A stretch of DNA of 64,000 bases from Takakia lepidozioides. Its lineage: Eukaryota > Plantae > Bryophyta. The first letter of the stretch is position 1. Every line of letters starts with the position of its first letter. Under the pieces are notes generated by a model. That model was not told where the DNA came from, did not search any database, and saw nothing but the letters and a program-made list of their open reading frames with translations. Shown here in pieces: positions 10,713 through 49,300 of this stretch. Both the position numbers and the translations under genes were made by a program. The stretch spans positions 4,030,001-4,094,000 of the forward strand of contig CM060731.1 in assembly GCA_030704615.1 (NCBI GenBank), given 5' to 3'.

Positions 10713-10782
10713 TGCCGGAAACCAGCATACCATCCTGTGAAAGGTTGCACGTGTGCATTAAGTTCTTACATTATTCCTATTA

Positions 10783-26243: not shown

Positions 26244-26330
26244 TGTCGTGCACCTAAGCATCGTGCCACAACATACATCGCTGTCCACCATACATTCTAA
26301 GCACACAATCCTAGAAAGCTATGCCACAAT
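26244..26330. repeat. Terminal repeat Y, outer copy (87 bp)
   Basis: Matches 26698-26784 with 2 substitutions. Confidence 0.95.
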
Positions 26331-26695
26331 GATAATGAAAGTGAACACAAGGGAAACACTTCACTCATGAATCCACTCAATCACATAAACTAAGTCAAGC
26401 CAAGGGCACCCTTGCTAAGGGAATCCACCCTACAAAGCCCTCAACACACTCCCTCTCAATACCTAGAGCTATGGAGGTGAGAGAGGCTCATGGAGGCTCA
26501 ACTACAAGAAGATGAGCCCTCCTCAACGCTCACAAGGAGAAAACCCATCCCCATGTCCCAAGTGAGGTTTGACACCTCACTTGGTATGTGAGACCAAATG
26601 AAGTCCCAACACACAAAATGCAAATATAAATATCCAAAATGTCCTAGTTAACTAGAAGTAGGTAATTCTAGTTAACCATGACTAAAACCATGACA
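26330..26695. repeat. Terminal repeat X, inner copy (366 bp)
   Basis: Matches 42495-42860 with 8 substitutions by manual alignment and no indels. Confidence 0.95.
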
Positions 26696-26697
26696 AC

Positions 26698-26784
26698 TGT
26701 CGTGCACCTAAGCATCGTGCCACAACATACATCGCTGTCCACCATACATTCTAAGCACACAATCCTAGAAAGTTATGCCGCAAT
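26698..26784. repeat. Terminal repeat Y, inner copy (87 bp)
   Basis: Direct repeat of 26244-26330, separated from X by the dinucleotide AC (26696-26697). Confidence 0.95.
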
Positions 26785-27037
26785 CGCCCACCTAGCTGGT
26801 GATTAGGTCCCTCTACCGGATAGCTGACAAGTATCCATCTCAATAAGATCATCGTTTGGTCTTCAATCGCACATGTCCCAATTTTTTAAAGTATATGAAT
26901 CAAGAGGTCAGGTGCAACGAGAGCCCCATCGTTGATCGCCTACTTGCAATCCATGATCTTCAATTGAGTATCCATAGCGTTGAGCTCCTACAAGCTAGAC
27001 CTTGGATCACTTGTCAACTCCACCATTGTCATGCCCA

Positions 27038-28429
27038 CTACATATGTCCAAGGCATCGTGGACACAACCATTCTCCACTAGGAACCTCCTCAAGTGGCGG
27101 TGTCAAGCATCCCATGTGCCACCCGCTTGGGCATTTGTCACACACCAGCATGGTTACGGCACCACCAGCATGCCCACATAGCATGCAACGCAACCCTGCA
27201 GGTACCACTGCAAGGTTGGGATCTATCATCCCATCCACATGTGGAAGGTGACATGGCGTACAATTGCGCACATGGTCCTTCCATACCATGCCATCTCGAC
27301 CCTCCAGAATCAACACTCCTGAAGGCAACACCTCCCGGACCCTTAGAATCACATGCCCTGCTGTGACATCCAAAGTCGTAGGCGCTGTCTGCTGCAGATA
27401 CACATAGTCCCCAGGGTGGAAACGCCGAACACCTGGCCGATATCCCCCTCCACGTACAGTGACATACCTCAATGTGTCTCGGTGTTGGGCAATAGCAAGG
27501 TTCTCAAAAGCCATAGGCATGACTCTCTTGAACAACTCTGCCCGCTGGGCACATGCTTGTGTCCACACATCCGGATCATCAAGGTTGAGGACTATTGCAG
27601 TCTCCCTGCGAATAGATGCAGACAAATGTGGATCTCGGCGAAAGAGAAGGAAATAAGGTGAGAATGAGGCAAGTGAAGCTTGTTTGCTGAACTTATAGCC
27701 CATAGCTAGCCAAGGCAGCTGAAGGTCCCAATCTCCTAGGTGTCCCTTCTGCAAACCGTACTTGCGCAAATCTCTCTTGACTGTCTGAACAACTCTCTCC
27801 GCCAAGCCATCAGCCTCGGGATGATCCCGAGAAGTAGTGCGGTGATCTATCAAGGCTTGCTCATACAAAGCCTGAAACTCCCCCAAGAATTCTCTCCCCT
27901 GGTCCGTGAGTACCTTGGCTGGAGCACCAAAATGGCTAAGCACTCGATCTAAGAATGCATACACAGCCCCTTCACTTGCCTTGTCAGGCAATGCCACCAG
28001 TTCAATCCATTTGGAGAAGTGTTCCACCATCACCAGCACATACTTGTTATGGCGAATCATCAGTAGCAATGGGCCTGCGAAGTCAAGACTCCAACGATAG
28101 CCCAAACCCATAATGGGTAAATGATGCAATTGTGGAGTAGGGGCGTTGAAAGAAGCCTGCACTCTATCACACACCATGCACCTTGCCACTAACTGTTGCA
28201 CATCCGTGTGCATGCCCCGCCACCAATACTGCCCTTGCAGCAAACTATGAGTGCGCCGCACCCCAAAATGTCCCAACTCCTCATGGGCATGGCGTATCAA
28301 TCGCGCTCGTTGTGTTGGATGAGGGACAATTCTCACTCGTCCATCCTCCCATACCCGGAGTAGGTGAGTCCCTTCCCACTTGAACCTCTTGGCTTGTTGT
28401 AGGATCCGATCTCTTTCCTTAGCAGTCAC
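27038..28429 (-). CDS. Retrotransposon DDE integrase with C-terminal PHD finger
   Basis: HHCC zinc motif (HAHEELGH...CMVC) and catalytic SLDFAGP / LTDQGREF / ADGLAERV. C4HC3 PHD finger CMLC..CDKC..WHMGC..WLCPRC at 27053-27187. Confidence 0.95.
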   Translation of the reverse strand: MTAKERDRILQQAKRFKWEGTHLLRVWEDGRVRIVPHPTQRARLIRHAHEELGHFGVRRTHSLLQGQYWWRGMHTDVQQLVARCMVCDRVQASFNAPTPQLHHLPIMGLGYRWSLDFAGPLLLMIRHNKYVLVMVEHFSKWIELVALPDKASEGAVYAFLDRVLSHFGAPAKVLTDQGREFLGEFQALYEQALIDHRTTSRDHPEADGLAERVVQTVKRDLRKYGLQKGHLGDWDLQLPWLAMGYKFSKQASLASFSPYFLLFRRDPHLSASIRRETAIVLNLDDPDVWTQACAQRAELFKRVMPMAFENLAIAQHRDTLRYVTVRGGGYRPGVRRFHPGDYVYLQQTAPTTLDVTAGHVILRVREVLPSGVLILEGRDGMVWKDHVRNCTPCHLPHVDGMIDPNLAVVPAGLRCMLCGHAGGAVTMLVCDKCPSGWHMGCLTPPLEEVPSGEWLCPRCLGHM

Positions 28430-28504
28430 ACTGGCTGCTGTCTCTCATGTACGAAGGTAGGCCAACACTGCTGCATCTTCATGCACATCCTTAGCACCAC
28501 TAAG

Positions 28505-29929
28505 CTACTCACTGATATCTGGATCGTCATGCACACCATCTACTTGACCAATGCTATGGGATGGACCAGCTTGAGCTCCCATTGCTAGGATGCACAAAAA
28601 GACAGATGCATGCCATCCTGGCACCATCTCCTCATCTGTCTCACCATGCCACCGAGCTCCAGTATCATCATGCTTGCTCGTGCATGGATTACGACTCAAT
28701 CCATCTGCATCCCGATTGACAATACCGGCTCGATGCACCACCTGGAAGTCGTACTCTTGAAGCATAAGTGCCCATCGTGCAAGCTTCCTTGTAAGCTTGT
28801 CTGACTCCATCAACCACTTCAATGGTTGGTGATCCATGACAAGGGTGAAGAGATTGTTGTAGAGGTAGCATCTGAAATGTGCAACTGCCCATACCGTAGC
28901 TAGACATTCCCCTTCATATGAACTATACTTTGTCTCGGCATCATTGTTCGAGCGGCTAGCATATGTCACTACGAACTCTCTTCCCTCATCATCCACCTGT
29001 GTGAGCACTGCTCCAATCCCCAGTATACTCCAATCCGTATGTAGCTGGAATGGCCGCCCCCGAATAGGCCGCCTCAGAATAGGTGCAGAAGTCAATCCAG
29101 CCTTGAATTCCTCAAAGGCTTCCTCCTGTTCCTCCTCCCACTGCCACTCCTGACCCACCTTGGTCAACTTGGTAAGAGCCTTTGCAATGGTGCTAAATCC
29201 CTTGACAAACCGTCGATAGTAGTTTGCCAACCCCATGAAAGCATGAACTCTGCTAACATCTACGGGGCGTGGAATGCGTGCAATGGCCTCCACCTTCATC
29301 TTTTGAACACCCAATTCTCCAGGGTATATCATGTGGCCCAAATACTCAATCTGGTTGTGGAAGAACTTGCACTTCCCAGGGTGCAATTTCAACATGTGCG
29401 CTCTCAAGCGCTCAAACACCACCTGAAGGTGTCTCTCATGCTCCTCAACCGTAGCACTAAAGACGATGATGTCATCAATGTAGCACCAGGCGAAGTCTAG
29501 CCCCGCAAGAATCCTATCCATGACCCTCTGAAACTCTGTAAGAGCATTCTTCAGGCCAAACGGTAAGAACCGCAATTGGTACAAGCAATCCTTCCCATGA
29601 TGATCAATCCCCCAGAATGCCGTCTTTTGCTTGTCAGCCTCTTTGATTGGCAACTGGTGGTAACCGGATCGCAAGTCCAATGTGCTAAACACCTTTGCAT
29701 GCCCAATGGCATCAAAGATCTCCTCTGGAGTTGGCATGGCATATCTATCGGACTTAGTCTGACGGTTCACATGACGATAGTCCCCACACATCCTTCTTTC
29801 TGTCCAATTGCCATAGATATCCTTCTTAGCTGGCATCACCGTTGCCGAGGCATACTCCCCGCCTGACAACTCCACCAATCCAGCTTCGAGCAACTCCATA
29901 GTCTGTGACTGGATCAATGACCTCTCCAT
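28505..29929 (-). CDS. Ty3/Gypsy-type reverse transcriptase and RNase H
   Basis: RT motifs RMCGDYR, FSTLDLRSGYHQ, LPFGLKNA, YIDD and YLGH. RNase H motifs LHTDWS, EGECLA, DHQPL and ADGLSR. Separated from neighbouring domains by disrupting lesions. Confidence 0.96.
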   Translation of the reverse strand: MERSLIQSQTMELLEAGLVELSGGEYASATVMPAKKDIYGNWTERRMCGDYRHVNRQTKSDRYAMPTPEEIFDAIGHAKVFSTLDLRSGYHQLPIKEADKQKTAFWGIDHHGKDCLYQLRFLPFGLKNALTEFQRVMDRILAGLDFAWCYIDDIIVFSATVEEHERHLQVVFERLRAHMLKLHPGKCKFFHNQIEYLGHMIYPGELGVQKMKVEAIARIPRPVDVSRVHAFMGLANYYRRFVKGFSTIAKALTKLTKVGQEWQWEEEQEEAFEEFKAGLTSAPILRRPIRGRPFQLHTDWSILGIGAVLTQVDDEGREFVVTYASRSNNDAETKYSSYEGECLATVWAVAHFRCYLYNNLFTLVMDHQPLKWLMESDKLTRKLARWALMLQEYDFQVVHRAGIVNRDADGLSRNPCTSKHDDTGARWHGETDEEMVPGWHASVFLCILAMGAQAGPSHSIGQVDGVHDDPDISE

Positions 29930-30532
29930 GTCACTATACCGGTAGGGCCTTCAAAAGATTGGCGTATCACTTGCCAAATCAATACAAATCTCCTGACCCT
30001 TCAAACTCCCAAAATCCTTCAAACCGAAGGCAAAGCAATTTCTATAAGCCCTTAGAAATCGCTGGATCCTCCGTCTCTCCTCTCCGGTGAATGTAGGTCC
30101 AACATCTGGTTCCCAATTGTCCTCAGTGACTGCAACCTTAGGTACACCACGCTTGGAGGTAGGAGATGAATCCTTTGGTTGCTAGATAGCAACCTCTTGG
30201 GCCTTGTCCGCCCAATCTGACTATGGCGTAGCCTCCACTTGCTCCACCATAGCCACCTTGAGAACTTCCTCTGAGCAAGAAACATTCTCAACCTCTTCAA
30301 AAACCTTAGTCACCTTGGCCTCCAACTGATCCTCAGTGTATGGCTCTCCCCACTCCTCATACTGCTGCTTGAGAGATCTAATGACTCTCTCTTTGCGCAT
30401 CTCATCCCACATCTGCCATGGGTGTTTGCACCCCATGATCTTGTGCTTGCCCCCACTCACTGCCTCCACTGTCCCGGTTGGCAGAGATGATGCAATATCT
30501 AATGGAAGTGCAGAAGTAGCCACCAATGCTTG

Positions 30533-31497
30533 CAATCTTCGTTGTTCAGCCATGCACAAGCCAATGACCCATGTCAAGCAATTGAGATCCATTGCTTGAC
30601 CCAACACCTGGCGTCGTGATGCCTCTGACAGAGCTGGCACAGCTGTAGTGCCCGTGGCAAACCCCATTGCCCGCTCGCACTCATCCGCATTGGGCTCCAC
30701 CAATTGCTGTAGCACACTGTCCCAAATCAACCCAGGACCATTGTCTCGAAAAGCATGAGATGAGGGAAAGCTCATGAACGTAGGCAAGGTTGTACGTGGC
30801 TGCCCCACTCGATTGACCACTACTAGAGGTGGATGGTCATCATGTCGCACCCTCTGTGGTTGCCTCCCTTAGTCCAAAATGCCCTCAACCGTGAGATTGG
30901 GTGGCCGTTGAATGGAATCATATGCTCTCTTGAGCGGCTCTGGTGGTGCAAGATTGCTCCACCACAATCGAGGTCGATGCGTGCGTGATCCCACCGCTGC
31001 TGCATCCAATAGCATCGCCGATCCAATCCAAGACCGCACCTGATGCACACTGGCCATAACCCTGGCCCGAGAGTCCCCCATAAGATGAACATTCTCCAAG
31101 ATATAGGCTAAAGGTGCTTTGTCTGCAACTCACGCAACACTCTCAACATCTCCCAAAATAAATGCGATCGTGCATCATGGAAGCCATTCCCATGACTTGC
31201 GGGAGAGTGTCCCTGGCAAGGCCATCCAGCTATCACCAAGTCAATGGCACCATGCCGGTCCAAATCATCTGCCCCCAGCATGGTAATGTCTGCTGGCAAG
31301 GCCTTTTGGTACCCTTGAATTGCTGAGAGAGGCAGCAACTCAGGGTACTGGTGTGTGAGCAAGGCAACGTGGCGCATAGAAATACGCCGAGCTATCTCAT
31401 CCTTCTCCTCATACAAGTATTTTTATACTTTAATCCCAGCTTGCAACACTCCTGCAAGCCCAGTGCTCATGCCTCCAAACAGGTCTAGCAAACAAAT
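30533..31497 (-). pseudogene. C5 cytosine DNA methyltransferase domain (DNMT3-like) inside the retrotransposon pol, disrupted
   Basis: Motif I LLDLFGGMSTG, motif IV DLVIAGWPCQG (PC at 31221-31216), motif VI YILENV, motif VIII HRPRLWWSNL, motif IX ECERAMGF.TGTT and motif X RRQVLGQAM, all in canonical order. Stops at 31423 and 30869, and one frameshift near 31110. Confidence 0.93.
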
Positions 31498-31879
31498 CCC
31501 TGAGTCAGGTGGTTGCCAGGTAATGGGCACTGTGTCCAAAAGAGCTAACTGAGGAGGTCCAAGTGATGTCACTAAACTCCCCTCACTCACCAATGGAAAT
31601 GCCTCTTGCCATGCTTGGTGCACACACTCGCATGCTATTCGATGCAAATTCCCAACTGTACCCCACAGTGGAATATGAACAGGCACATGAGGAAGCAAAT
31701 CAGCCTTGTATACCAATTGTTTGTCCTTATCAGGTGGTGGCCTATCATCTGCATGGCTATTGCCTTCCAAGAGCTCACCACCCCAAGCCACCACCCCTGA
31801 GAATGCAGCCAATGTGGGCATCATGTTCCTATGATCCACCGCTATATTCCCAATAAACCGCACTGGGAGCAGTGCACGT

Positions 31880-32215
31880 CGACCATCCCCTGACTGCCAT
31901 TCCGGCATATAGGATGTCGTTTCCTCCCAAAAGTCCAAAGTAAAGCCCATCGGGTATAACACAGCCCCACCAACAAGCACATCATAAGACATCGCGTCCG
32001 TAACAATGGCTTTAGCTCTCATGACTGAGCCATCCGTAGGATGATCCGGCTGCAATCGAATGAAGAGCTCATGGCGTGTAATCCCTCGTGCCTTCTCTGA
32101 ACCGCCCAAGGATATTGAATTTGGAAAGGGCAAGGCTCCAAATCCGCCTCTGTAAGGCCCAAGCCTGCAATTGCTGCTCTTCCCAAAATCAATGGCTGTG
32201 CTCCTGACTTGCAGA
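31880..32215 (-). pseudogene. Degenerate retroviral-like aspartic protease
   Basis: SGAQPLILGRAAIAGL near 32165-32207, where the catalytic D of D-S-G is apparently lost by a deletion. SYDVLVGGAVL matches the C-terminal D-x-L-x-G protease motif. Confidence 0.7.
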
Positions 32216-32825
32216 GGCCTATACCTCTTCACGGCTGGGCCACCCAACTGAAACACACCATCCTGATTGTCCTTCCAGCTAGTGGTAAGAGAATGTCATG
32301 GATTGACTCCCGACACTGGCAATGCGAATTAGAGCAGCAAACGCAACCCACAAGTGAGCATCTGGTCTGAGACTTCAAACCGTTGCCGATGCTTGACTTG
32401 GTAACAACTATCTGCACCTTGTTTTGCAGCACCACCCACTGGCATATCCTGAGCCACACCAACTCTCCCCACTGGCACTCGTGGCTCTACCTCTGACACA
32501 CTTGGGCGAGCGGGTACCATCGATGGCGTAGTTGGCACTGTCTCAGCCAATGTGAAAGACTATGGAAGTCTTGTCTGTCGACTTGCTTCCCCCCTTTGTG
32601 GATCAAAATCCACATCTGCTCCTCTTGGCTCAGGAGCACGCGTTGCTGCTCGAGTGACAGCAGCTGCAGAGTCCACATGCAATGGTCCTGCAAGCGCGGC
32701 TCCACACATGAAGCCCATACCAATCTGGTCTTCCCTAGGCATAGGAGGTTGTGCAGGTGGGGCTTGAACCTCAGGCCTTGGAGCTGGTGCAACATGAGTA
32801 GTGGCCATGGTAGCAAGACGTTGCT

Positions 32826-34146
32826 CTAGCTGGGCAAGCCTATGTCATGACCTTGACCGTGACCCTGTGCTCCTTGGTTTTGGTTACGCCCTCCACCACG
32901 ACCTCTGTCTCCTCTACCTCTCTGGACTACATTGCCTCGTCCTCGGCCACAATTGTTCCTTTGGAACTGGCCTGGCTGTAGCTCAGGATGCAAGTCATAA
33001 CGATGGGTCTCTTCATGCCCATACTTGCCACAATGCCTACACTCTAGTTGTGTAGGCTGTGCCTGTGCCGGCCCTTTGCCTCTCTCCGGGAAATCTCTCT
33101 TAAGATGGGGTCCTCCACAATCCCAACATGTCACTCCCGACTGTTGTTGGCCTGAGAATGAAGGAAGTGACCTCTGCAATTGAGATCATCTCTGTCCTTC
33201 CCTGGCTTCGCCTGAGCCCCTTTGTTGCCTTGATCACGTTGGGGTAGTGGTTGTTGTTGGCTAGGAGCCCCACTTCGTTGTGTCTCCTTACCAAACCCCA
33301 CCATGACCACTCGCTCCTCCACCATATTGAGCTCTATCCGCTCTGCCAGCAAAAACACGTTTGCTAAGGTGGGTTGGGCCACTTGTAGGAGAGTTGCATC
33401 CCACACCCTTCTCCTCAACTCCTTGTCCAAAATCCCATACCAGAATTGGACTGCTTGAGCTTCCGTAACCCCTTGGGTTACATTTATCAATCGCCTCATG
33501 CGCGTGTAAGCCTCCCTTAAACTCTCGGCAGGCTTTCGTCGGAACTCTTGCAAGCTCTGCAATTTCTCCGTCCTTATCCCCTGGTAATTTCTCCTTAACT
33601 CCTCGAAGAACTCCACAACTGGGTTAAAGGCAGGCACGGGTGTTGGTGCTGCAGCAAGAGCTTGGGTGGACTTCCCAGCTCCTGTTCCACTTGACGTCCC
33701 ACTGCTGCTTGCAGAAGCTGCCGGTGTAGCTGCCGGTGTTACCACTGCCCTTGTGCCTCTAGTGATGGAGACATAGTCAGGTGACCAATATACCCGCCAT
33801 TCCTCAATCTCCACCTCATGTCCCCGCCTAAACTCATGGTAGTCATCCATAGGCGGCCCCTCAAGGTGCTGAAACAGCCCCTTCCATGCCATAAAAGGCG
33901 TAAACAGTTGTGGATTGCGCATCTACTGCAAATCACACCAACTATCAAACTCCTGTATGAAATCATCAAGCACGATGGTGCCCACAGCTCCAGAGTACCG
34001 ACGTGGCCTCTTGGTAGCTCCATACGTTTCCTCCATCGTATCCCACAACAATGGCACGGAAATGGCTTGCACCCTCGGCGAGAATCCTCTTAACTTTGAG
34101 TCTGAACCTTCCTCAGAAGACACTGAAGGTGAAGGTGGCCTAAACC
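32826..34146 (-). pseudogene. Retrotransposon gag with two degenerate zinc knuckles
   Basis: LDDFIQEFDSWCD, EKLQSLQEFRRKPAESLREAYTRMRRL (retrotransposon gag core), and knuckles CWDCGGPHLKRD and CRHCGKYGHEETH. The frame continues for about 30 codons on the far side of the nested insertion (40037-40125). Confidence 0.85.
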
Positions 34147-35074
34147 CCTGGGGGGTGCACTCCTCATTAAATGTACCAGGCACGTGTGTGCACAGGAGGG
34201 AGTATTTTAAACCCCCCCATGTACAACATTATATATATAGAGGAGGGTTTGAAACACCTTAAATATAATTTTACAGGAGGGAGTTGTTGAGTTTTAAGGG
34301 GTAGTGTAGTGGTAAGAGCAACGTTTAGGCCGCGACTCACTGCGAGATCAAATTGCGGGATCTTCTTTTTGTTTTTTTTTTTTTTTTTTTCCTATCCGCG
34401 ATCTTTCTCCCCTTCCCTCCCGCGGCTTTCTCTTTTCCCTCTCCTCCTCTCCCGCGATCGCCTTCCCTTCCGCGGGCTTTCTCTTTTCCCTCCTCTCCTC
34501 TCCCCTCCTCTCCACAGGGCATGGTATTCTTCCTGATGTTTACAAGGTTTAGGGGAGAGTGAGCTTGGTCTTAGCATGCCATTTTGTGGTGGTTTCTCAA
34601 AGACCAATCCGACATTATCTGACTACAGACACCAGCAGCACACCGAAGCGATCCTTTTGGGTTGATGGGAGGGCAAATCCTCCATGGGTCATGACACAAG
34701 GTCAAGGACAATGTGGTGAGGGCACCTTCTTCTTCGACCTATTTCAGCCTGTCTTGCCCTCTCATCAGAGTCGGCCCTGAAGTTGCAGCACTGAGCAGAC
34801 CTGGCATGAGTTTTTAGAAGATTGACAATGGTGGGACAACTGCAATCGCAAGGTGTGGCGTTTTCTTAAGGTAAGAATTTTTTCCATCCTGCTATTGCAG
34901 GCTCTTGCCTCCTGTTAGTACCTGATTTGGTATTCTTCCAGATGTTTACAAGGTTCTTGGGAGAGTCAGCTTGGTCTTAGCAGGCCGTGCTCAGCTGCAA
35001 CGTGGTGGTTCTCACTGACCAATCCGTCGTTACCTGACTACAACACAAGTAGGCACACACAAGAGATCCTCTTT

Positions 35075-36510
35075 TGATCTCAGTCCAAACCAGGAAGTGG
35101 TCAGAGGTACCAATATCAGTTCTGTCGATCAACACATTGGCACACTGGGGGAACAAATTTTTGTCCATTATGATATAGTCCACAATGGAACGTTCCCCAG
35201 TTTGGGATTTCTCACGAGTCCACTGCACTTGGTCACCTGCAGTTGAAGTCCTTGCCCTTGGTTGTCTTCCTAGAGCGCCCCATTGAATCACCAATGACTA
35301 AGACCGCTTTCCAGCCAGTCAAGGGATGAACTTCTTTGAGATTGAATTGATGTGGGACTCTATTAGAAGCACTTTTGGTCATTGCAACCTTCAACGTACA
35401 CATGTTATCAATGAGAGAACCCCGGACAGTGTATCAGAAAATGAGTACTGTCTTCAGATTGCCCACACAATGGGAAGTGCACTCTCCCTTTCCTCTCTGC
35501 TTCTGTTTGCTGTTCAAAGGTAGGCTTCCTGCCCTGAGTTTAAATTTCAGTCTAGTGCCGAGAGTGGGTGGACCCTTGAGGTCATCCAAGATGTCCTCCC
35601 CCATGTCACTGACTGGAAACAAGTTCAGGGAAGTTTTCTGCCTAACTTCATTTTCATCAGACAATCTCATGGCAACAGACATGGCTTTGGACACTACAGC
35701 CTCTAAGTTGGATTTATCCAACAGGGTCAAGACTTGCGGATCCAGGTCCAGGTCCTTGAGAATCTCTTCTACTCTGGTGTTGGGAAAACACCTTTGGATC
35801 TCAGTCCAAACCAGGAAGTGGTCAGAGGTACCAATATCAGTTCTGTCGATCAACAGATTGGCACACTGGGGGAACAAATTTTTGTCCATTCTGATATAGT
35901 CCACAATGGAACGTTCCCCAGTTTGGGATTTCTCACGAGTCCAGTGCACTTGGTCACCTCTTGTCCTGTTATTCAAGGTCAAAAGCTGAAGCTTTTCCAG
36001 ACAGTTAATTAACCGTCTGCCATTAGAATTCAGCTCGTCCTCACCAGAAGGCCCAATGATATCATCCTGATGGAGCCCTTTGCCCACCCGGGCTTTTGTC
36101 TGCGTCAGCACTAAGGGTCCCCTCTGTGGGCATGTAAGCACAACCCACAAAGAGGTCCTTCGTACTCATGCCGCCCTTCAGATTCAGTTTAGCCAGATAC
36201 TATGCTCGTACCTCAAACCCTTGTTGATAATTTCACAATTGTCAAACAAGAAATCACAGACAAAGAATCCAACCCCTTTTTGACCGCATTTGGCAGAGGC
36301 GCCTTGAGAGTACACATCTTACCTGCCCATTTATAATCATTGACATCTCCAACCAGTTTATCCGACGTTTCCCATGTTTCTTTCCCAACACAGATATGAA
36401 TATCATTAGTCCGAAGAACTTGTCCCACTTTGAGTTGTTTCCTTTGGTTGGTCAACCCTGAGAAGTTGAAAGTGGCCAGCTGCAATCCAGCCCTGTGCAT
36501 GTGAATTGTT
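35075..36510 (-). pseudogene. LINE ORF2 fragments: AP-like endonuclease and C-terminal Cys region, RT missing
   Basis: LATFNFSGL, ICVGKETWE, NSNGRRLINC..LLTLNNR, SIVDYI and GTSDHFLVWTEI (APE motifs, the last segment duplicated), followed by GTRLKFKLRAG...CTSHC. Confidence 0.75.
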
Positions 36511-36949
36511 TGTCGTCTAGGTAGCTTGTGATTGCTCCTATACGGCCAACCGTTCTGCAAAGGGGGGACAGTTACCCCATGGATTCAACCTCATCCAGAG
36601 CATCAAACCGATTAGAAACTCTCAAGTTGAAGTCCTTGCCCTTGGTTGTCTTCCTAGAATGCCACATTGAATCACAAATGTCTAAGACCACTCTCCAGCC
36701 AGTCAAGGGACGAACTTCTTTGAGATTGAATTGATGTGGGACTCAATTAGAAGCACTTTTGGTCATTGCAACCTTCAACGTACCCCTGTTATCAAGTCTC
36801 GAGATGGAACCATTAGCCATGAAATCCAAGCCTAAGCTAGAGCATGTAGTTTTAAAGATATAGAGTCGATGTTTCCAAGATATAGAGTCGATTAACTTAG
36901 GATATCTGGTGTTGGACATATGTTGTAGCTGACCCCACCATCTGACCTT

Positions 36950-39320
36950 TGAATTCATTTGTGTGCGTTTGCAGTGCGTGTGCAAGCCTGCAGCCATGGA
37001 AAAGGGCAAAGAGGTGCATGGTTGCATCACCAAAGCTGGAATTGTACCGGATGTGATTATGAACAATACTTTTGTGGACATGTATGCCATTGTGGGAGCA
37101 TTGAGGATGCGGAGGGAGTGTTCAACACTATGGCTGAATGAGGTGGTGTCGAGGAACACGATTCATCCAAGAGGTCGATTTAAGACACAAGATTACTTCT
37201 GATTCCCTGCGGATCAATAGCTACAAGAAAACTGCGTGGGTAGATGGTCAACTGGAAACAGCAGCGGCAACAGTGCATTTGGTAGGACAAGGCGCTGCTA
37301 ATGAAGGTACCTTCTTCAACACATTTCAGCCTGTTTTTCCCTGTTATCAGAGTTTTTCCCTGTTTTTTCCTGAATGAGCATGGATAGAGTGTGGGTCCAG
37401 ATTCATCCAAGAGGGCTGGACTTCAAGCTCCAGATTACCTTGATTCCATGTGGGGGTCAGTAGCTACAAGAAACCTGCATGGGTAGATGGTCAACTAAAG
37501 GCAGCAGCTGCAGCGGCACAGTTGATAAAATCAGGCACCTCAACCATGACCAGAGCTTCTGAAAGAGGATCAAGAGAGGGAGTCCACAATGCCTCTTCTG
37601 GCACTTCTGGGCATGTGAAGATACTTTGTGCGACAGCCTAACAGAGGCTCTACAGACTCTAAACCAAGCAGGCAGTTCAGCAGATTCAGATATGTATGTC
37701 TGTCTCTTGCTTAAGTGCATCAAGATGGAAGGTCTCAAAGCTGGAAAGCAGGTGCACACTCACATTATCCAAAGTGGATTCACGCCAAATGTTTTTCTAC
37801 TCAACACCCTTGTCAACCTGTATGTTAAGTGCCGGAACATCAGGGATGCTCACCAAGTGTTCAACAAAATGCCTCAATGATCTTTGATCACGTGGAATAT
37901 TATGTTGAAAGGATTTACCAAGCATAGGTGTGGTAGGAATGTTTTGGAGACATATGAGCAAATGATGTGCGAAGCGGTGAAGCCCAACCACATCACATTT
38001 GTTTGTGTTTGCAATGCGTGTGAAAGCCTGGGAGCAAGCTGGAATTGTACCAGATGTCATCTTGAACACTGCCCTTGTGGACATGTTTGCCAAATGTGGG
38101 TGCGTTAAGGATGTGAGGGGAGTTTTCAACACTCTGGCTGAACGAGATGTTGTGTCGTGGAACGTGATGCTTGCAGGGTATGCACAACAAGGGCACGGGA
38201 TGGAGGCTTTGGAGACCTATGAGCAAATGATGGGGGAAGGGGTGAAGCCTAACCAAATCACAAGGCATTTCACCAGATTCAGATATGTATGTCTGTCTCT
38301 TGCTTAAGTGCATCAAGATGGAAGGTTTGGAAGCTGGAAAACAGGTGCATACTCACATCATCCAAAGTGGATTCACATCAAATGTTTTTCTACTCAACAC
38401 CCTTGTCAACATGTATGTTATGTGCGGGAGCATCATTGATGCTCACCAAGTGTTCAACAGAATGCCTCAACGATCTTTGATCACGTGGAATATAATGTTG
38501 GCAGGATGCAATGCGTGTCCAAGCCTGCGAGCTCTGGAAAAGGGAAAAGAGGTCCATGGTGACATCGTCAAAGCTGGAATTGTACCAGATGTCATTCTGA
38601 ACACTCCCCTGGTGGACATGTATGCCAAATGTGGGTGCATTAAGGATGCGAAGGGAGTTTCCATGGCTGAACGAGATGTGGCGTCGTGGAGTGCGATGCT
38701 TGCAGGGTATGCACAACAGGGACGTGGTATGGAGGCTTTGGAGACCTATGATCAAATGATGGGGGAAGGGGTGAAGCCCGACCACATCACGTTTGTGTAC
38801 ATTTGCAATGCGTGTGCAAGCCTGTCAGCTCTGGAAAAAGGAAAAGAGGTCCATGGCGACATTGTTAGATTTGCAATTGTATCAAATGTCATTCTGAACA
38901 ATACCCTCGTGGACATGTATGAAGGGAGTGTTCGACGGTATGGCTGAACGAGATGTGCTATCGTGGAATGCGATGATTGCAAGATATACACATCAAGGGC
39001 GCGGGATGGAGGTTTGGAGACCTATGAGCAAATGATGTGCGAAGGGTTGAAGCCCGCGCTTTGCATTGCATGATGTTGAGGAAGAGCTTAAAGAATCGTC
39101 TCTTTGCCACCACAATGAGAAGCTGGCCATTGTTTTTGGGCTTATCAACACACCCTCTGGGATGTCTTTGGGGATCATCAGGAATCTTCGGATGTGTGGT
39201 GATTGCCACACAGCCACCAAATTCATCTCAAAGATAGCTAAGCAAGAGATTGTTGTACGGGATGCAAACCGCTTTCACCACTTCCAAAATGGTGTTTGTT
39301 CTTGTGGGGAGTATTGGTGA
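36950..39320 (+). pseudogene. Scrambled DYW-PPR pseudogene captured in the Pack element
   Basis: Multiple frameshifted L/S/P motif fragments ([41 protein letters not shown]) fused directly to a truncated DYW domain [20 protein letters not shown]...CGDCH...CSCGEYW (39066-39320). The P2-L2-S2-E region is deleted. Confidence 0.92.
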
Positions 39321-40899
39321 AATGAAATGCTTGTCACCTAATTGAATGTATTGAACTCTGTCAGCTGCGAGTCAGGTTGGACTCCTACAGTGGCAGCAAA
39401 GGCGCACGAAATCTCTTTTTGGAGAGGAATTCTCAACAATAGGTTTTGAACATAATTGGACCTTGCGAAGGTTGAAACTATAGACCAAGTTCAGAAACTG
39501 TCCTAGTTGATGAACAGAGGTGCAATGACTAGGTTTTGATGGTCTTCAAGAGGGTCACTCTCTGATGAAAATACCCAGGACTGTATATCAGAAAATGGAA
39601 ACTTTCTTCAGGCCTCTTGCACATCGGGCATTGACAATGTCCCTTTCCTCTCTGCATCAAATTATTGTGCATCTGATTATTGTTCAAAGTGAGATTCCAC
39701 AACAAGTTTTATCGAGGGCAAACAATTTTTTTAAATTAATTTATTAGATTTTGTTCTATTTTTAAATGAATAAACTTGATATAATATAAAAACATACATA
39801 TACATATTTGAGGGTATTTTTAATTATTGAAAAGGGAAATATACATACAGTAGGGGGTACTTTTTTAAAATTACAAATTTCTATATATTTACAGGAGGGG
39901 GTTTTATAATCTTCAAAATGTATGTACAGAGGGGGTATAAATGATCCAAGGACCCGTATACATGGGGTTTTTTAATTAGGCGGCGAACGCACGTGATACG
40001 GACATTTTATAAAGAGTGCACCCCCAGGCCTAAACCGCACACCTCGTCTTGTATACCCACTAGTATCGCTGGAGCTCGTACCGGCACTCTCCTCAGCAAC
40101 TGGTGGCACCTCCGTGTTGAAAACTCACAACCACACATGTCGTAAACCTGTCTCTAATCCCCCTTTCCACAAGATAACCGGGTAGAGAACCTGTTGCGGC
40201 TTATGGCTTAGACTACTAGGTTCGTAACATAAACCTGCACCTGCATCCACCGCAAGCACTCCTATGGTCTGCTGGTCATCAACCCAGCCTTACCATAAGA
40301 GAAACAATGATGGTCTGATTGGTCATCACCCCAGCTTCACCACCGACAGCACGCTCTAGGATTGACCGGTGATCAGATCCGGACCAACCTCCTATGAAAA
40401 CAAGCGCCCACACAAAGCTAACATGGCGCACAGTCAAGCATGCAGGTGTGGAGGGGATCCAAACACAAGAAAATCAAGACAACAACTCCCCCACACCAAG
40501 AACACTCCACAGTGTCGCTCCTGCAATGACACCCTAGCCCAAACCCGAACTGACTCTTGCCTCCACCTACGGAAAAGTTTTGGCCTACAGAGAGGGTGAA
40601 AGACTACAAGGAAGAGAGACTAAAGCAATTCCTAATCCCAGCATGCCTTCATCCCACTACCCTATCTCCACACTCTCTTGCTTGAACAATAGACAAGACT
40701 ACCTTTCAAGGGTCTCTCAAATAACTCTCCAGGAGCCCTCAAGAATATGTTTCTCAAACAATCTTACTAAGGCTCCCAATCCTTGCACAATGGGACTCCA
40801 AAACAGTACACCATGGCCCCAAGAGCCTGCCAAAACTTAGCCCTCGAGGACCCCAAATAGTCCCTCACACAAGTCGCCAAAGACTCCTCAAGCTTGCCA

Positions 40900-41045
40900 A
40901 ATATTGGCCTCCAAGGACCCCAAACGGTCCTCCAAAGAATTCCAAATGGTCCTCTAAATGGTCCTCTAAATGGTCCTCCAAACAGTCCTCCAAGGACTCC
41001 CAATGGTCCTCCAAGGACCCCAAACAGTCCTCCAAGGACTCTTCC
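40900..41045. repeat. Degenerate 11-12 bp tandem array (GGTCCTCTAAAT / GTCCTCCAAGGA) in the retrotransposon 5' leader
   Basis: Directly visible tandem units, followed by TATTCCC and GCCATTTCCCCC repeats to about 41270. Confidence 0.85.
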
Positions 41046-42494
41046 TATATCACCATGTTCCCAATGCGTTCCCAAAGTTCCTTAGGAATATTCTTGAGAA
41101 TATTCCATAGTATTCTCCCAGTATTCCCCTGGGCCTATACGTATTCCCCTTGTATTCCCGCCATTTCCCCTTGGTATTCCCATTGGAATAGCCATTTCCC
41201 CCTCATAGAGTAGTTCATTCCTCCAGGGTTTAGCCATTTCCCCCTAGGCTTTAGCCACTTCCCCCTCTATTTCCTTGAGGTTTAGCCCTACCAAGCTAGG
41301 GTTTGTGCTCCTTGGGGCTCTATGCTTAATCCCCTCAAGCATCCATGAATTCTATGGGGTACCAAGGCAAATTCCTTTGATCTTCTTCACCTTAAGCTAC
41401 TCAAGTTTGTCTCCAACTCAACAACTCAATATCAAGCTTGTAACTCCTTTGGCAAGCCACCAAGCCTTGTCTCCTCTCAAGCCTTGGTCATTCAAGCTCC
41501 ATTCACTTGCTAGCTCAAGAGCCACTTCTCTCCAGCTTGAAATTGCAAAGCTCAAGCCAAAAGCCTGCTCCACACATGCATCACCTCATACACAAGGGAA
41601 TCGACTTGCTTCCTTTACTTTCTAGCTATCCTCAAGCTTGAAATTGGAAGCCACACTTGGGAAGCATGCTCCACATAAACATCACTTGCTTGATCAACCA
41701 TCCACCACAAAACTTAAGCCAAAAGGGAATGAATACATGAGCTTCACCTTCACCTTCCCCTTCCTTTTGTTGTCACATGCTAGTCTATGGTTGAAGTTGC
41801 TATGCATGCCTTGAGCCACAATCTCTTTTCTTCATGAAGACCACCTCCAATGATCTCCTACATGTGCTCCAAGCTCTTCAATGCTCTAGGCTTGGTTTCA
41901 CATCATCATGGATAGAATTTTCACCCATATGCTTCCCTTCAAACCTCTTGAGCTTCCTAATGCTCTCCAAGTGCTTGCCCTTGTTGTCTTCAAGCCCAAG
42001 CCTATGTAGCTCCTTGGCTTCTCTTCGACAACATCCACACTTGAGCTTGCTTAACCCTAGATTGATAGTGAAATGAGTACTAACAATCATTTAGTTGCTC
42101 TCCACAAGCCATGGCACACACCATTGACTCCATAATGCATTGACAAGATTATCAAACCCTAGAATCCATGCTTCCACACACACAAGACTTCCCTCTTGCA
42201 ATCTTTGCAAATCTTGTGGCAACAAGTTCTTTCTTGAGCTCTTCAACACCTTGGTGTAACACCACAAGTAACTTTCCTTGCAACCCTTGTGATCTACAAG
42301 AGCTCCATCTTTGAGCTCTCCACCTCCTTAGGGCAAAGCAATATCTCTCAAAGCCCTAACACCAAAAGGATTTTTCTTTGCAATATATGCAACACCTTGC
42401 AACACAAGAACTATCTTCCCAAGCTCTTCAACACACAAGTGCTAAACTAACCCTTACACTCTGCACTCACAAGCATAAGGTGATCTTCTTGTAG

Positions 42495-42860
42495 TGATAA
42501 TGAAAGTGAACACAAGGGAAACACTCCACTCATGAATCCACTCAATTATATAAACTAAGTCAAGCCAAGGGCACCCTTGCTAAGGGAATCCACCCTACAA
42601 AGCCCTCAACACACTCCCTCTCAATACCTAGAGCTATGGAGGTGAGAGAGGCTCATGGAGGCTCAACTACAAGAAGATGAGCCCTCCTCAACGCTCACAA
42701 AGAGAAAACCCATCCCCATGTCCCAAGTGAGGTTTGACACCTCACTTGGTATGTGAGACCAAATGAAGTCCCAACACACAAGATACAAATATAAATATCC
42801 AAAATGTTCTAGTTAACTAGAAGTAGATAATTCTAGTTAACCATGACTAAAACCATGACA
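42495..42860. repeat. Terminal repeat X, outer copy (5' end of the retroelement)
   Basis: About 98% identical to 26330-26695, ending CATGACA followed by ACTC. Confidence 0.95.
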
Positions 42861-45800
42861 ACTCACTAGTACGCAAGCCTAACTCCCCAACTGGCGACAT
42901 CGCTATAGCTTTAGGAAAGGGAAACCTAAAGCTCAATTATCCTTTGATCAGCTAAACTCAAGTGCAATAGCTAAATTGATTTAGCTACCTATTTTTTCTC
43001 CTCTGCTACTTTATCTTTTTGAACTCTTGATTACGGGCAATGTCCATTTTGTTAGCCTTTATGGCTCCTTACAAGGTTATTTTTTCCTTGTGCTCAATTA
43101 AAACTCAACGTCAAACATTAAACATCACATAAAAATAATAAGTTGGCAAGGGTTGTGGATGACTGGAAATACTCAACACCTATTTTGGACCCCTCTCCTC
43201 TTAATTGATGTACATGTACAAATTTTCTTCAAATTTTTATTTTATTTTATTCATATTTAGTAAAGCATATCTCGAGTCCACCTTGCAATGAACTTTGAAT
43301 GGATGAAATTTGCTGAGCACTTCATCTGATATGGATGAAAACATCCTTAAGTGTATGATATTTAGGGTTGGATTTCGATTATACATATACACATATATCT
43401 ATCTTAATGCTTTGTTCTGTTGGTTTCATCCATTTAGTTAACGGTCGGCTAGGCCCAAAACGGGCTCGGCAACTACTCAATCCATCAACGGTCTTCAGAT
43501 TTGGATGGTTTCACAAGATTTTTAAGACATTGATGCCCTTGTCATGTGGGACCACTTAGCACATAGTTGATTGGATCAGGAGCTGCATGGGAGAAGCTAA
43601 TGTGGAGCCAACGAAGAGGAGGAAACCTTGCAAATGCTCCATCTCTGGGGAGCTCTTTTCCTCTGTGCAACATGAGAAAGTGAGTGGTCCAAGTGGAACC
43701 ATGCCTTGACTAATCACCTAATCTTGCAGATTTATCCAGATGGCCCCATTCAGCGGCTATGAATGCTTCATGTGGCAACATAGACTCTCAAATTTTGGGC
43801 TAAAAGGATTTCATCCCCTAATTCAGAAGTAATTAAAACTAGAAATTAACATCTATCATGTAGTGAAATTGCAAATCTTCACTTCCAACGGTGGAGATTT
43901 TTCAGATCTTGATCGATTGTCTTGCAAATTTGTGAGCAGACCGCTATCGCTCTAACTATCATTACTCCCCAAACTGGAGAATGGTTCAATGCACCAGCTT
44001 TGCTACCTAGGCTCCATTTGGGGGGCTTTCTTGCTCTTTCTTGCTGTGGGCCCGGATGGTCGTTACCAACTTTTCCTATCGAAGTTTGGCCGAGTGTCGA
44101 ATGCAAACCTTTAAGACACCGGAACCTTTAAGACTGCGCGGAGAGAGTACCTAAACTCTAAGGATATCCATCTACCTTCATCCCTCTTTGTGGCCATTCA
44201 TTTGTGGGGTCTTCATGGTTTATTTTACTTAGTTATTTCTTATAACCCCCCTTGTCTATTTGCCATGCTTAATATGATGGTGTTTTGGGGTGGTTGTTTT
44301 TGGACCTTTGATAGGAGTTTTTTGTTTTTGTTTCTAAGCTGTCATTTCAAGCCTACCTTTGTTACTTGAAGTGCCTGCGGCCAGCAGCCTCTATACTGAG
44401 GGAGGAAAGATCACACTTTTAGAGTGCAGGCTTGCAGGGTTTGAAAGGTAGAGGATGACCTTTCCAACCAACACCTAGCATATCCTGATGTAGCATGGGG
44501 CGGTCATGTCTTTCCTGGACATATTTTCTGGATTTTATAGGTATTTTTCATGTCAGGGGTATCCTTTTTCAAAAAAGTCTGCAAAAAGCACTGGGCATTT
44601 AAGGGTTAAAGGCAGGTAGGTGTTGAGGCACCAATTTCTCGGCGCACATACTTGGGCTTAGTATCTGTGCAGCTAGGCAACAACTTGCCAAAAGGATTTG
44701 GTGCTTGCCTCAGCGCCACTAGAGCTGGACTGTTAAAGACTGTAAATGCAGTCTTTTGTAATCTTCAAATGTTTCTGGTCTCCAGTGATACAAGCCCATC
44801 TAATTAACAAACGACTCCTTTACAACTGAAATTATAACACAATTCTGAGTGTCCTGCTCGAAATCTCAAAGCTACACATGCCATCCCTGAGCAGCGGATA
44901 ATAGTGCTCATGGCCACAGTAATATTGTTGACTTCACTTCAAACAGAAAGTCTTGTATTATGATCAGGTACTCAAATACCATCAGCTCCATGGCGGAAGG
45001 ATGCCTGGTTGGTAACAAAAAGACATTCTCCCGAAAACAATTTAACCTTAGAAAACCACTAATGTATAAGCCCTGTATACTAGCGACCTAGAGAGAGTCC
45101 ACTTCCATTGCCACCAACCTGGGTTTATGGCTATGGTCATTCCTGATGACAAACACAACATTGAGAATACCAAATCTCCACGTGTACTACATAACCAACA
45201 TAAAAGAACCTCCGGCCCACTGCTCATCTATGTGTAGTGGACTCCTAGAGACTTGGAAAGTTGTCTACGTGGGCTCACCCCTGCAGAGCAAACGGTGTAA
45301 CAACACAAAAAAAATAAGAGAAGCAACAGAGCTGAGTCCAAGCTGAGCCCAAGCTGAGCTAGTTGAGAGAAGGCCCAAATGTAACGTAGAAAATGGACTG
45401 CCTTATTTCAAGACAACAATGGAAGGTTGTTGGAGGTCACAAGGCACATCCAGCTTCTGCTTTGCACTTGCAGTCAACAGCCAGGTGGGCATCAAAGCAA
45501 AGGATAGAACCTGAATGCTTGGCCAATATAAGGATGACAGTTTTCACAAAAATCCTCCAGACATGCAAACACTCTGTAGGAATAAACAACCTTACCGAAT
45601 CTCCTACTGAAAAGAGTTCTGGTTGCCACCTCAAATATGTTGTAGAGAGAAACGGTCACGTTTGCTGGTGCAAAGACCCCTCTGATATGTAAACAAAGAG
45701 CTTGAAGAGATCCTCTGATGCGTGTCACTCCATGCCAAGCGCTGTCATCATCAGCTGGGCCGCATAACGTAGCACGGTCCCATCATCAGTCATCATCCAA

Positions 45801-46371: not shown

Positions 46372-49300
46372 TCACTCAACCAGAAAGTTAACCGCAAGAT
46401 CCCAGTAGTGTACAACGCCAGCATCTGAAAGGTACTTCCTTGCAGCAGCTGCTGAACGGAACTGTTGAATAAGGAATTTGTCAAAATTAGGTCGGGCCAC
46501 ACTTCCCTGCCAAACAAGTTCACATTTATTCACACATCGAGGCTTGACTTCCATGCCTTCCTCAGTCTCTTCCTTCACAGCTGTTGCCCAGTTAATCCGC
46601 TGAGTCATTAACTTGTTGTAGCGCTTGATGGATTTGGCTCCGCCTTCAACAATAACCACAGACATGGCATCGGACATGACCACACAGCCAGTAAGTCGGT
46701 TTTGTCGTGCATTCATATCCACTTTGAAACGTGTCTGCTTGTGCGACATATCCAAGACACGGTAAACACAGACGATTGAGTCAATTGTTGTGGTATCATC
46801 AAACAATTTCTTCTCCTTCTTTTCCTTGCGTTCAGCAGGTGTGAGCTTGCGGGCAAGGTTTCGATCAGTGTGAGCTTGTTCTCGCTCAGCAGCTGCACTT
46901 CGAATCTCTTTCTCAAGCCGCGTGGGGTCCTGAGTGGCCTCGGCCCCTAAGACCTTCATCAAATTGCTCATTTTAACCTTGGGTTTGGGGGGTTCCAATA
47001 GGCCTTGGCGTATCATCTCCTGCCTGTCCTTCTCCTTTGCTAGCCGACGCTGTGTGCGCAGTTTCTTTTGTTCCTTCTTTGTAAGCTTCAATGGCTGTGG
47101 GGGTGGAGGAGCCGGTTCGGCAGGAGGGTCTATTGGCACTGGGTGCTCCACAAAAAAGGTGATCCTCTCTACCTTCACTTTCCCGTCGGCAATGTCCTCA
47201 TAACTCTTAGAGGGTAGGAACCCCGCATCCCTACATACAGTACAGACGGTGTTTTACACATGGAAAAAGATATCAAGCTCATTGTCAATATTCAGCATGA
47301 CGAAATCAGCCCGAGACCTTCTCGAATCCAATCTTTGGAGAATTATGCAGTGCCGGCCTGGGCAGACTAAAAGCTAGACAAGCTTACAAATCATAACATT
47401 AATTTAAAACCAAACTCTAGTGACGAAGGTATAGTTAGAGAGCATATACATACCACCATTCAAGGTCAGGAATAGGATCCTTCAGTTTCTCCTCGATGAC
47501 AGGAACTCTGTCTGAGACTTCGATCAAATTAGGATTGATATCTGACTCTGCCTTTGCCTTAGAGAGTGCTGCTTGCTTAGCCTTCATTTCCTTGGCTTTG
47601 GCCTCCCCATATTGACTCTGCACATATATTACTTTCGACCATCAGGGACATATCAGCAAGTAAAGCTAATCGGGTAATTTCATCAAAAGATAATGATGTG
47701 GCTGGACTGTGGCATATAGGAACTTTAGCAACAATGAGACGACAAGGAGGAAGAGAATTTTTCGAACATCTGAAAAGAGCTCCAAGAGGGTACAGGGTAG
47801 GGGGAGAGGAGGGAGATATTAGGGGTGAGGAAACTTTACTAGGATTAGATAACACATTATCTTCAACAACAGAGTTGCTAGATGACAGAAGGTCCCAACA
47901 AAATCCACTTCCAGAAGGTATGACTGAGGACTCATACCCGTAACTTCTGTATCTCAGCGTCCTTGGTCCACTTTCCCTCCTCAACAAACTGGAAATTTGA
48001 CCTCTTTGGCCGTACCAGCTTCTTTTTGTCAATGCCCACACGCGGATCAAAGAAGGGGTTACCAACTGGATCTTCATCTAACTCTGGCCGCAATATTTGA
48101 AACGCCTCCTTCTTCTGCTTGTTTATGTTCACCTGCACCAAGCCAGTCAAGGCCAACAATTGTCACATCCAACTCAATTGCCAAAATGGAGGTAAATAGG
48201 CCAAGCAGAAGTAATTCTAATAGGATAGGCAGCTAGGAGGACCCAAGATACCTGAAGATGCATTGTTGACATTGTCCCACAGCTATACATATATATATAT
48301 TTCACTGCAAGAAGTTGAGAAACTCCATATCCATGACAGAAACAATAGCAAGCCACCAGCCTCAAATGCATTTTTCTCACTCCTAAGAGGATATGTAGCA
48401 CAAAATCTCCTGTTTACCTTCAAAGTGCTGAGGTTTGTGATCTTGGGCCGATCTACAATGTTGCCATGTTCATCAATCTCTCTTCCCTGAGCATCGAGAC
48501 GCAGTACTGGGGCCTTCACAGTCTTTGGTTGTCCTGAGAGCCCGCCCATATCATCGGGACCTGGAGTGGGTATCATGTTGGGCAAAAACTGCATACCTCC
48601 TAAACCTCCTGGAAGCTGATGAAACCCATACTGAACTGCTATCTCATGGGCACGTTTAACAGCTTCATAATTAGATATTGCCCCAGGGTGAATGAGACCA
48701 GGCAATCCAGGTATCATTCCTGGGATATTGAAAAAGGTCCCACTCGCAATCATACTTGGAGGAATTGCTCCTGGCAATGGCAAGACTGGCTGGGTGAGTT
48801 GGGTCGGCATTGGCAATGCTGCTTGAGGCAGCGTAGGGGCAGGGGAAGCTGAAGATGAGGGGGGGGCAGTAGTGGTCGTGGTTGGTGTCTTGTTCAACTG
48901 CAAGAAATCACAAGTTAGATACTTACTCTGACTAAAAGAGTCGACCTCATAATCTCCTAGCAGCAGGATATTGTAAAAAACTATGGGGGATATTTACCAG
49001 CAGACGCCAACTTTGCAGAGTCTGAAACTTCATAAAATCAAAAGATCGATAAATAGTGATTGTGCTTTTGATTTATTCCTCTAGAAGATTGCGGAGAAAT
49101 TGAGGTAAATTTACTTTTCTTGAAGTTTTGCGACTTGTCAGGTCTTGTTTAAGAACCATTTTGAAGCTTCATTTGCACTTGTAGGTACATAACTGTATAT
49201 ATCCTGTGTGGCATCACTAACTGCAGGTGGGACATATCTGTTGTTCACACTTGGTCAAGGCTATCCCATGTGGAACAGTTAATTGCCACAAAGGATAGCT

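Follow-up and report, generated by a model that had tools for sequence, protein, structure and literature searches.

A transposase-less TIR element with a scrambled PPR-DYW and LINE cargo interrupts a Gypsy-type retroelement of Takakia lepidozioides

Several described systems bear on DNA transposons that carry host sequence. Pack-MULE elements have long terminal inverted repeats (TIRs) (PMC8903248, PMC12973397), and Pack-TYPE members of the hAT superfamily have 8-nt target site duplications (TSDs) (PMC8903248). In grapevine, two copies of the CACTA element Cactavine-5 carry a partial pentatricopeptide repeat (PPR) coding sequence and 3' untranslated region (UTR), and an antisense regulatory role has been proposed (PMC2528002). 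Hornworts, a moss and lycophytes have 1,583-3,256 PPR genes, an expansion ascribed to dispersed duplication and retroposition (PMC13386178). The locus described here lies in a 64,000-nucleotide stretch of Takakia lepidozioides DNA (contig CM060731.1, positions 4,030,001 to 4,094,000; hereafter the window, in whose numbering all coordinates are given). It is a 5882-bp insertion (34147-40028) in a Gypsy-type retroelement that encodes a DNA methyltransferase (DNMT). We consider it probable that this is a transposase-less TIR DNA element bearing a scrambled, non-coding mosaic of PLS-DYW PPR and long interspersed nuclear element (LINE) sequence, which was likely assembled by repeated template-switch capture in an earlier copy and likely owes its mobility to a transposase supplied from elsewhere.

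The insertion is flanked on both sides by CCTAAACC (34139-34146 and 40029-40036), an exact 8-bp match. Because this 8-mer occurs seven times in the window (six times on the forward strand and once on the reverse), the match alone is weak and outside proof was required. Contigs were compared from five of ten listed public runs (X1, X5, X6, X7 and X8; X2-X4, X9 and X10 were left aside). Loose ends before 40027 equal the left flank of the window in 32 X1, three X5 and two X6 contigs, which is the empty site in other copies of the Gypsy element. The TSD and the insertion are therefore solid, and the TIR insertion is younger than the host lineage. A first-pass annotation had described an insertion with an exact 8-bp TSD, nested in a DNMT retrotransposon and younger than that retroelement with its approximately 98% identical repeats, and each of these points holds. 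An alternative 10-bp TSD was rejected, as it requires asymmetric ends and X1 record 7 matches to 40028.

The element has the ends CCTGGGGG(G)TGCACTC, with CC..GG termini. The left TIR (34147-34189, forward strand) consists of a 16-bp core, CCTGGGGGGTGCACTC, and an imperfect extension; the right TIR (39987-40028, reverse strand) has the core CCTGGGGGTGCACTC. Rather than the clean TIRs of about 45 bp first annotated, these are a near-perfect 15/16-bp core with one G indel, followed by a 77% inverted match out to approximately 39-43 bp. The left subterminal region (34190-34339) has TACAGGAGGG-like repeats at 34191, 34238 and 34272, and the AT-rich right subterminal region (39710-39986) has them at 39846, 39890 and 39925; five of the seven matches to this motif in the window (with at most one mismatch) fall in the two element ends. 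A search of the window with the TIR pattern, allowing up to three mismatches, gave four matches against 2.93 expected, and only the two element ends are meaningful. Two X1 contigs (records 6 and 7; depths 58.9 and 60.1) match the right end through 40025 and 40028, respectively, and then continue with 1828 and 410 nt of non-window sequence; the right end is therefore present at other sites.

Among 103 element frames and 94 frames from other parts of the window, no transposase family exceeded its Pfam cut-off. PF13963 matches of 21.6 and 17.9 bits fall under the cut-off of 27.7 and are located on PPR frames; sub-cut-off matches to Transpos_assoc, Toxin_19, E1_dh, TPMT and DUF7609 were taken as chance. 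With its TIRs and TSD, its lack of a transposase in 103 frames, host gene fragments inside and the same ends at other loci, the insertion is supported as a non-autonomous Pack-TYPE TIR element that interrupts a Gypsy-DNMT element.

Mutator-like elements (MULEs) have TIRs of about 100 bp or more, TSDs of usually 9-11 bp and termini that begin with G. Here, only short subterminal motifs follow the 15/16-bp core and its 77% extension to approximately 40 bp, and the symmetric reading gives an 8-bp TSD with CC termini. The termini of hAT elements start with (C/T)A, and CC..GG differs from these as well. The 8-bp TSD does agree with hAT, as do the short imperfect TIRs with subterminal repeats that are described for this superfamily (PMC10368747). 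Zisupton and Dileera (KDZ) elements also produce 8-bp TSDs (PMC12730594), a feature common to hAT and hence not diagnostic. We would label the element Pack-TYPE and assign it to no superfamily: of the earlier Pack-type and MULE label the first part stands, but the second is not supported by these ends.

The host retroelement (26244-42860, reverse strand) encodes gag-like, C5-DNMT, reverse transcriptase (RT), RNase H, integrase and PHD regions, has TG..CA ends and is flanked by a 4-bp TSD (ACTC). The TIR element lies directly upstream of the gag-like frame (33131-33922). The C5-DNMT domain is recognizable (PF00145, E-value: 1e-10) and is split over several frames. Host repeat A (42495-42863 and 26330-26698) has 8 differences in 369 positions, all transitions (97.8% identity), and repeat B (26697-26784 and 26243-26330) has 2 in 88. 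With a summed depth of 316k at 40073, the host family looks high copy. KnitGypsy-Dnmt3 of the charophyte alga Klebsormidium likewise combines a Gypsy pol with a C5-DNMT and DIRS-like repeats (PMC5890265), and both the C5-DNMT inside Gypsy pol and the DIRS-like split direct repeats are found in the Takakia host. The likeness is one of domain and repeat structure; unlike KnitGypsy-Dnmt3 as described in that source, this host resides in a land plant with DYW-PPR genes and its DNMT is broken into several frames.

The left arm of the element spans 34147-34519. Its inner part, a pyrimidine-rich tract (34340-34519, forward strand), has a CpG observed/expected ratio of 1.2, compared with 0.3-0.45 in the cargo, and its summed depth is like that of the TIR ends. 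The tract has no match upstream of the two intact PPR genes of the window. Because CpGs are kept, no upstream match exists and the depth is end-like rather than PPR-cargo-like, the tract likely belongs to the element's own left arm; it had been read as 5'-UTR-like, and the tract itself is present (34340-34520).

Two rearranged PPR-family 5' leader pieces follow (34520-35070, forward strand). Their alignment with the upstream region of PPR1 scores 140, compared with a shuffled maximum of 86, and two leader motifs are each limited to three copies in the window, one ahead of each intact gene and one in the cargo. Exactly 23 nt from the start of the first of them, GGTGGGACAA, lies a conserved splice-donor-like site, AAG|GTGTGG at 34852|34853, and the sequence after this site is intron-like. 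The exon end AAG|GTAAG annotated near 34870 exists at 34870|34871, but the donor conserved with the intact genes is the one at 34852|34853. At 458-1150 and 52743-53400, the two intact DYW-PPR genes have a conserved upstream leader in common, which has a donor-like site at fixed spacing and sits several hundred bases ahead of the first ATG of the long frames; it possibly represents exons further upstream or a regulatory leader typical of the family.

PPR N-terminal and PLS motif fragments, with deletions, duplications and frameshifts, occupy 36933-39054 (forward strand). About nine blocks can be told apart, with deletions, frameshifts of a single base and one return to the first repeat between them, and two TGA stops stand where sister motifs read CGA. 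Pfam PPR matches were found in 5 of the 103 element frames; the longest forward-strand ATG frame is 220 aa and contains PPR only. A DYW deaminase lacking its first residues follows (39055-39320, forward strand; Pfam DYW_deaminase, E-value: 1.6e-40), to which a P motif is joined directly and out of frame. It retains the zinc motifs HNE (HxE) and CGDC (CxxC) and ends in EYW. Pfam E and E+ matches are absent from the element and present in both intact genes, which carry the PG-type DYW-PPR architecture; the PG box is also missing from the cargo DYW. Downstream is the 3' region of a DYW gene (39321-39498, forward strand), where summed X1 depth is 3.3-8.1k at listed places compared with approximately 64 for lone contigs.

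The PLS fragments and DYW end seen in the first-pass annotation are thus present, but the mobilisation of a DYW-PPR gene is not supported: there is no continuous in-frame PLS and DYW array, E1, E2, E+ and the PG box are missing, frames are broken and one third of the element is LINE. Judged by its sequence, the cargo is a non-coding mosaic with no intact gene, and the DYW of this copy is dead, a pseudogene.

The LINE portion, absent from the first-pass account, amounts to 1.9 kb or 33% of the element, in antisense orientation and with the RT missing. The larger part (35071-36800, reverse strand) is a patchwork that holds duplicated 168-bp and 171-bp pieces (97.6% and 93.6% identical). In it, the AP endonuclease is joined directly to a C-terminal zinc region. 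A full HMMER search with the LINE frame at 35437-36165 found 112 relatives at E-values of at most 0.001, and all six of the long relatives scanned are proteins with endonuclease and RT. When mapped by tblastn onto one relative (P0137), the match runs to approximately residue 380 and resumes at 1098, and the RT of this protein is at 704-951. Word-index searches with the frame gave no match, and PDB gave only chance matches (E-values of 0.73 or more). A GDS motif noted by eye may point to an esterase ORF1 of the CR1/L2/RTEX type; Pfam did not confirm it, and we assign the LINE to no clade. The second piece (39499-39709, reverse strand) is another C-terminal zinc-finger fragment (zf-RVT, E-value: 0.0024) with a 15-bp tandem duplication. 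The 35071-36800 sequence, with its endonuclease and C-terminal zinc region in one open frame, belongs to a very abundant family, and the internally deleted LINE may itself be a non-autonomous LINE family.

The abundance of the parts was estimated from summed contig depth, which yields rough ratios, in units of a lone contig (mean depth 64, from six of the eight listed X1 pieces; records 3 and 8, with depths of 1334 and 129, were dropped as multi-copy). The terminal 140 bp at both ends reach about 420-910 units and the inner right subterminal region about 80-120. For the arm that runs from DYW through the 3' region into the LINE fragment, the minimum over the places listed is 39-70 units (2.5-4.5k of summed X1 depth over 39337-39604); DYW ends of at least 85% identity have about 1,560-2,510, and the first PPR repeat about 3,870. 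The arm therefore amounts to about 2-5% of DYW-end depth. A depth of 1334 is reached by one X1 contig that is identical to 39555-39654. One X5 contig covers 39258-39701 with seven differences (seven of about 429 letters, near the divergence of the host repeats) and without the 15-bp tandem duplication, and overlapping X5 contigs tile to 39982. A loose X5 end before 39760 represents a member of the family whose interior is different. EYW is likely a mark of the lineage carried by the element, because the X5 contig, judged by its seven listed differences, keeps it, while 78k of the 99k of X1 depth at 39311 has the letter for DYW. Among 22 metagenome DYW loci (39-67% protein identity), none has the TIR or matches either end.

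From these ratios we infer a family of several hundred element ends, about 40-70 of which share the DYW-3'-LINE arm. It had been pointed out that the case would suffer if no other TIR pairs carried PPR cargo and the PPR pieces proved to have entered this copy after it inserted; for the right arm (DYW end, 3' region and LINE zinc finger) this is not so, as many X1 copies and one X5 contig, from a second study, share it. Most likely, then, the DYW piece has moved with the element, yet it makes up only a few percent of DYW copies.

The shared arm could have a different cause, namely retrotransposition or segmental duplication of the whole filled Gypsy element instead of TIR movement. The host family is of high copy (summed depth of 316k at 40073), and the site contigs were judged among the matches listed, with 2906 further pieces among which filled junctions may be found. 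Among the matches listed, however, no contig bridges the TIR to Gypsy and the Gypsy contigs at the site show the empty allele. The right TIR also occurs at other sites, and the insertion is in the 5' coding part of the host. We regard this explanation as very unlikely.

A more productive role is also conceivable, in which a master copy with an intact or spliceable PLS-DYW gene under a left-arm promoter acts as an engine of editing-factor birth and some siblings encode working factors. The parts of the cargo follow one another as in a gene, all on the same strand (leader, N-terminus, PLS, DYW, 3' region), HxE and CxxC are kept, and X7 has contigs at the left end and across the DYW-3' junction. 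X7 and X8 are RNA only by guess, and expression is not claimed; X7 does not cover 39680-39949, to which no meaning is attached. The two X7 junction contigs differ from the arm and correspond to low-depth X1 variants: the first has letters found at an X1 depth of only 0-191, and the second a 57-nt insert at an X1 depth of 70. They resemble low-copy paralogs rather than element copies and are candidate donors at most. An X6 contig over the DYW junction (depth 13.9) was not used, since its depth averages over high-copy DYW. Moreover, E1/E2/E+ and the PG box are missing from this copy, its DYW is not in frame, the leader is cut off from the coding part by antisense LINE sequence of 1.7 kb, and the arm is a small share of DYW-end depth. 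An engine of this kind is therefore rather improbable. Likewise, TIR transduplication as a route for amplifying editing factors, as first suggested, is not shown, given that, in terms of summed depth, the arm is no more than a few percent of DYW-like ends.

Neither intact gene of the window is the donor of the cargo. The cargo DYW is 79.9% and 79.2% identical to the two genes, the first repeat 67.8% and 72.7%, and the genes are 75-84% identical to each other; at 68-80% identity to the cargo they are family relatives, as the first-pass annotation had it, but not its sources. X7 records 27 and 28 are donor candidates only. Contigs at least 85% identical to the first PPR repeat of the cargo (noted for 37535-39320) total thousands of lone-contig units, compared with 68-73% identity for the intact genes, which suggests that the genome contains a very large, young PLS clade.

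Duplicates inside the cargo bear on its age. Those across the cargo are 6.4, 8.6 and 10.1% apart, the last two being N-terminal/PLS blocks. Because these 6-10% exceed the 2.2% of the host repeats, capture, from several paralogs, probably took place mostly before this insertion. It was probably also at the DNA level, since intron-like sequence is kept after the leader donor and no poly(A) follows the DYW 3' region. If, instead, an empty or LINE-bearing TIR element had inserted first, the PPR pieces could have been gap-filled at this locus later, independently of transposition. The short overlaps seen where pieces join, for example at 35071 and 38035, would suit this, there are two PPR genes within 31 kb, and most single-copy Pack-TIRs are reported to arise by such gap filling (PMC8277862). 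Against it, those nearby genes are just 68-80% identical to the cargo, the right arm is common to many copies and was recovered in a second study, and the internal duplicates are mostly older than the host repeats. Later filling at this site thus appears highly improbable.

We favor capture in an earlier copy, which most likely proceeded as follows. Through several template switches, an earlier copy of the TIR family would have acquired DNA of abundant templates, namely PPR paralogs and a LINE family; the short overlaps at junctions (e.g. 35071 and 38035) fit template switching. The PPR and LINE pieces were probably captured because they are among the most abundant sequences in the genome. One arrangement would then have been spread by a transposase acting in trans, and one daughter would have landed in this Gypsy copy. 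The outcome would be a set of PPR-DYW pseudogenes scattered over many sites, a side route of minor weight next to the main gene family.

Several points weigh against this account. First, X1 may be the window's own source, which leaves X5 (study P2) and X6 as other studies. Second, the copy estimates derive from summed contig depth, a quantity that is not itself a copy number and that overlapping contigs inflate. Third, sharing is seen for the right arm only, by a tiling path in which no single contig bridges DYW to TIR, and the central part of the cargo may be peculiar to this copy; a second full-length copy with both TIRs and PPR cargo was not seen among the public contigs, which are not a genome assembly. 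Fourth, no autonomous partner was found in the window frames, and a 26-letter TIR pattern had no matches in metagenome contigs. Finally, one internal duplicate pair is just 2.4% apart, and some rearrangement may therefore be as young as the insertion.

That the copies are kept by selection, as a source of antisense RNA or small interfering RNA that tunes the PPR family, or that PPR cargo camouflages the element from silencing, seems to us extremely improbable. Such roles were proposed for the grape CACTA-PPR copies (PMC2528002) and for captured genes in maize (PMC13317346), and at identities of at least 85% a very large clade of PPR sequences matches the cargo; yet the PPR cargo has no inverted repeat, and tens of copies can be explained without selection.

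Elsewhere in the window, a 0.7-kb element (9264-9976) with 25-bp inverted ends (96%) and TA at its borders is, by resemblance, presumably a Stowaway-like miniature inverted-repeat element. Around it, nested inverted repeats span 6820-10782 (6871-6916/10686-10731, 7214-7262/10321-10368 and 10231-10263/10750-10782); no Pfam transposase was found there in frames of at least 70 aa, and these repeats are probably other non-autonomous elements. Three further genes were noted: an AWPM-19-like gene (4809-6228, reverse strand), a PRP3 splicing-factor exon (46372-47253, reverse strand; among the matches listed, at most 78% identity to named flowering-plant proteins and 78-86% to the six best, which points to a seed-free plant) and a long gene (56629-62538, forward strand) that we take to resemble one for a BEACH-domain protein.

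The thousands of PPR editing factors of seed-free plants are credited mainly to retroposition in PMC13386178, and here a DNA transposon also picks up and spreads PLS-DYW sequence. The evidence points to pseudogenes that make up a few percent of DYW ends, and PPR and DYW counts in such genomes may include element-borne debris. The specificity of PPR proteins is determined one motif at a time, and a carrier that brings together motifs of different paralogs could therefore in principle make new specificities. It is possible, but unlikely, that this family of DNA transposons, which has CC..GG ends, 8-bp TSDs and as yet no superfamily assignment in plants, captures PLS and DYW pieces of different paralogs again and again and recombines them, in a plant whose DYW genes number more than a thousand, and that among its copies, tens to hundreds in number, some are intact or return sequence to genes, as a DNA-based shuffling route to new editing specificities beside retroposition. 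The TIR, the EYW marker and the shared arm give this family a testable handle.

A search of titles and the starts of abstracts, which lay outside subscription papers, genome-paper supplements and Repbase, found no report of a DNA transposon with DYW editing-factor cargo. Capture of PPR pieces by a TIR element is already precedented in the grape CACTA (PMC2528002). Like Cactavine-5, the Takakia element is a TIR element with PPR coding and 3' sequence. Cactavine-5 has two copies, a transposase open reading frame (ORF) and PPR sequence antisense to that ORF, with no DYW mentioned in the part of the account drawn on here (PMC2528002); in contrast, the Takakia element has no transposase, combines several PLS paralogs with a DYW and probably exists in tens of copies. 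Like the seed-free PPR expansions, it adds dispersed PPR/DYW copies beside transposable elements. The source on those expansions credits retroposition and long terminal repeat flanks, its main text being without the word "transposon" (PMC13386178), whereas here the carrier is a DNA transposon and capture was likely at the DNA level. Multicopy Pack-TIRs under the FoSTeST model provide a likeness in mechanism, with template-switch capture at microhomology followed by spread through transposition; these were described in animals, where Ssk-FB4 kept a near-whole coding gene (PMC8277862), while the cargo here is broken. The closest general likeness is to Pack-TYPE elements (Pack-MULE, Pack-CACTA and Pack-hAT), which are non-autonomous TIR elements with TSDs and shuffled host gene fragments and which are described from Arabidopsis, rice and maize (PMC8903248); the element reported here differs in residing in a non-angiosperm land plant, in its CC..GG termini and in its cargo of editing-factor and LINE sequence.

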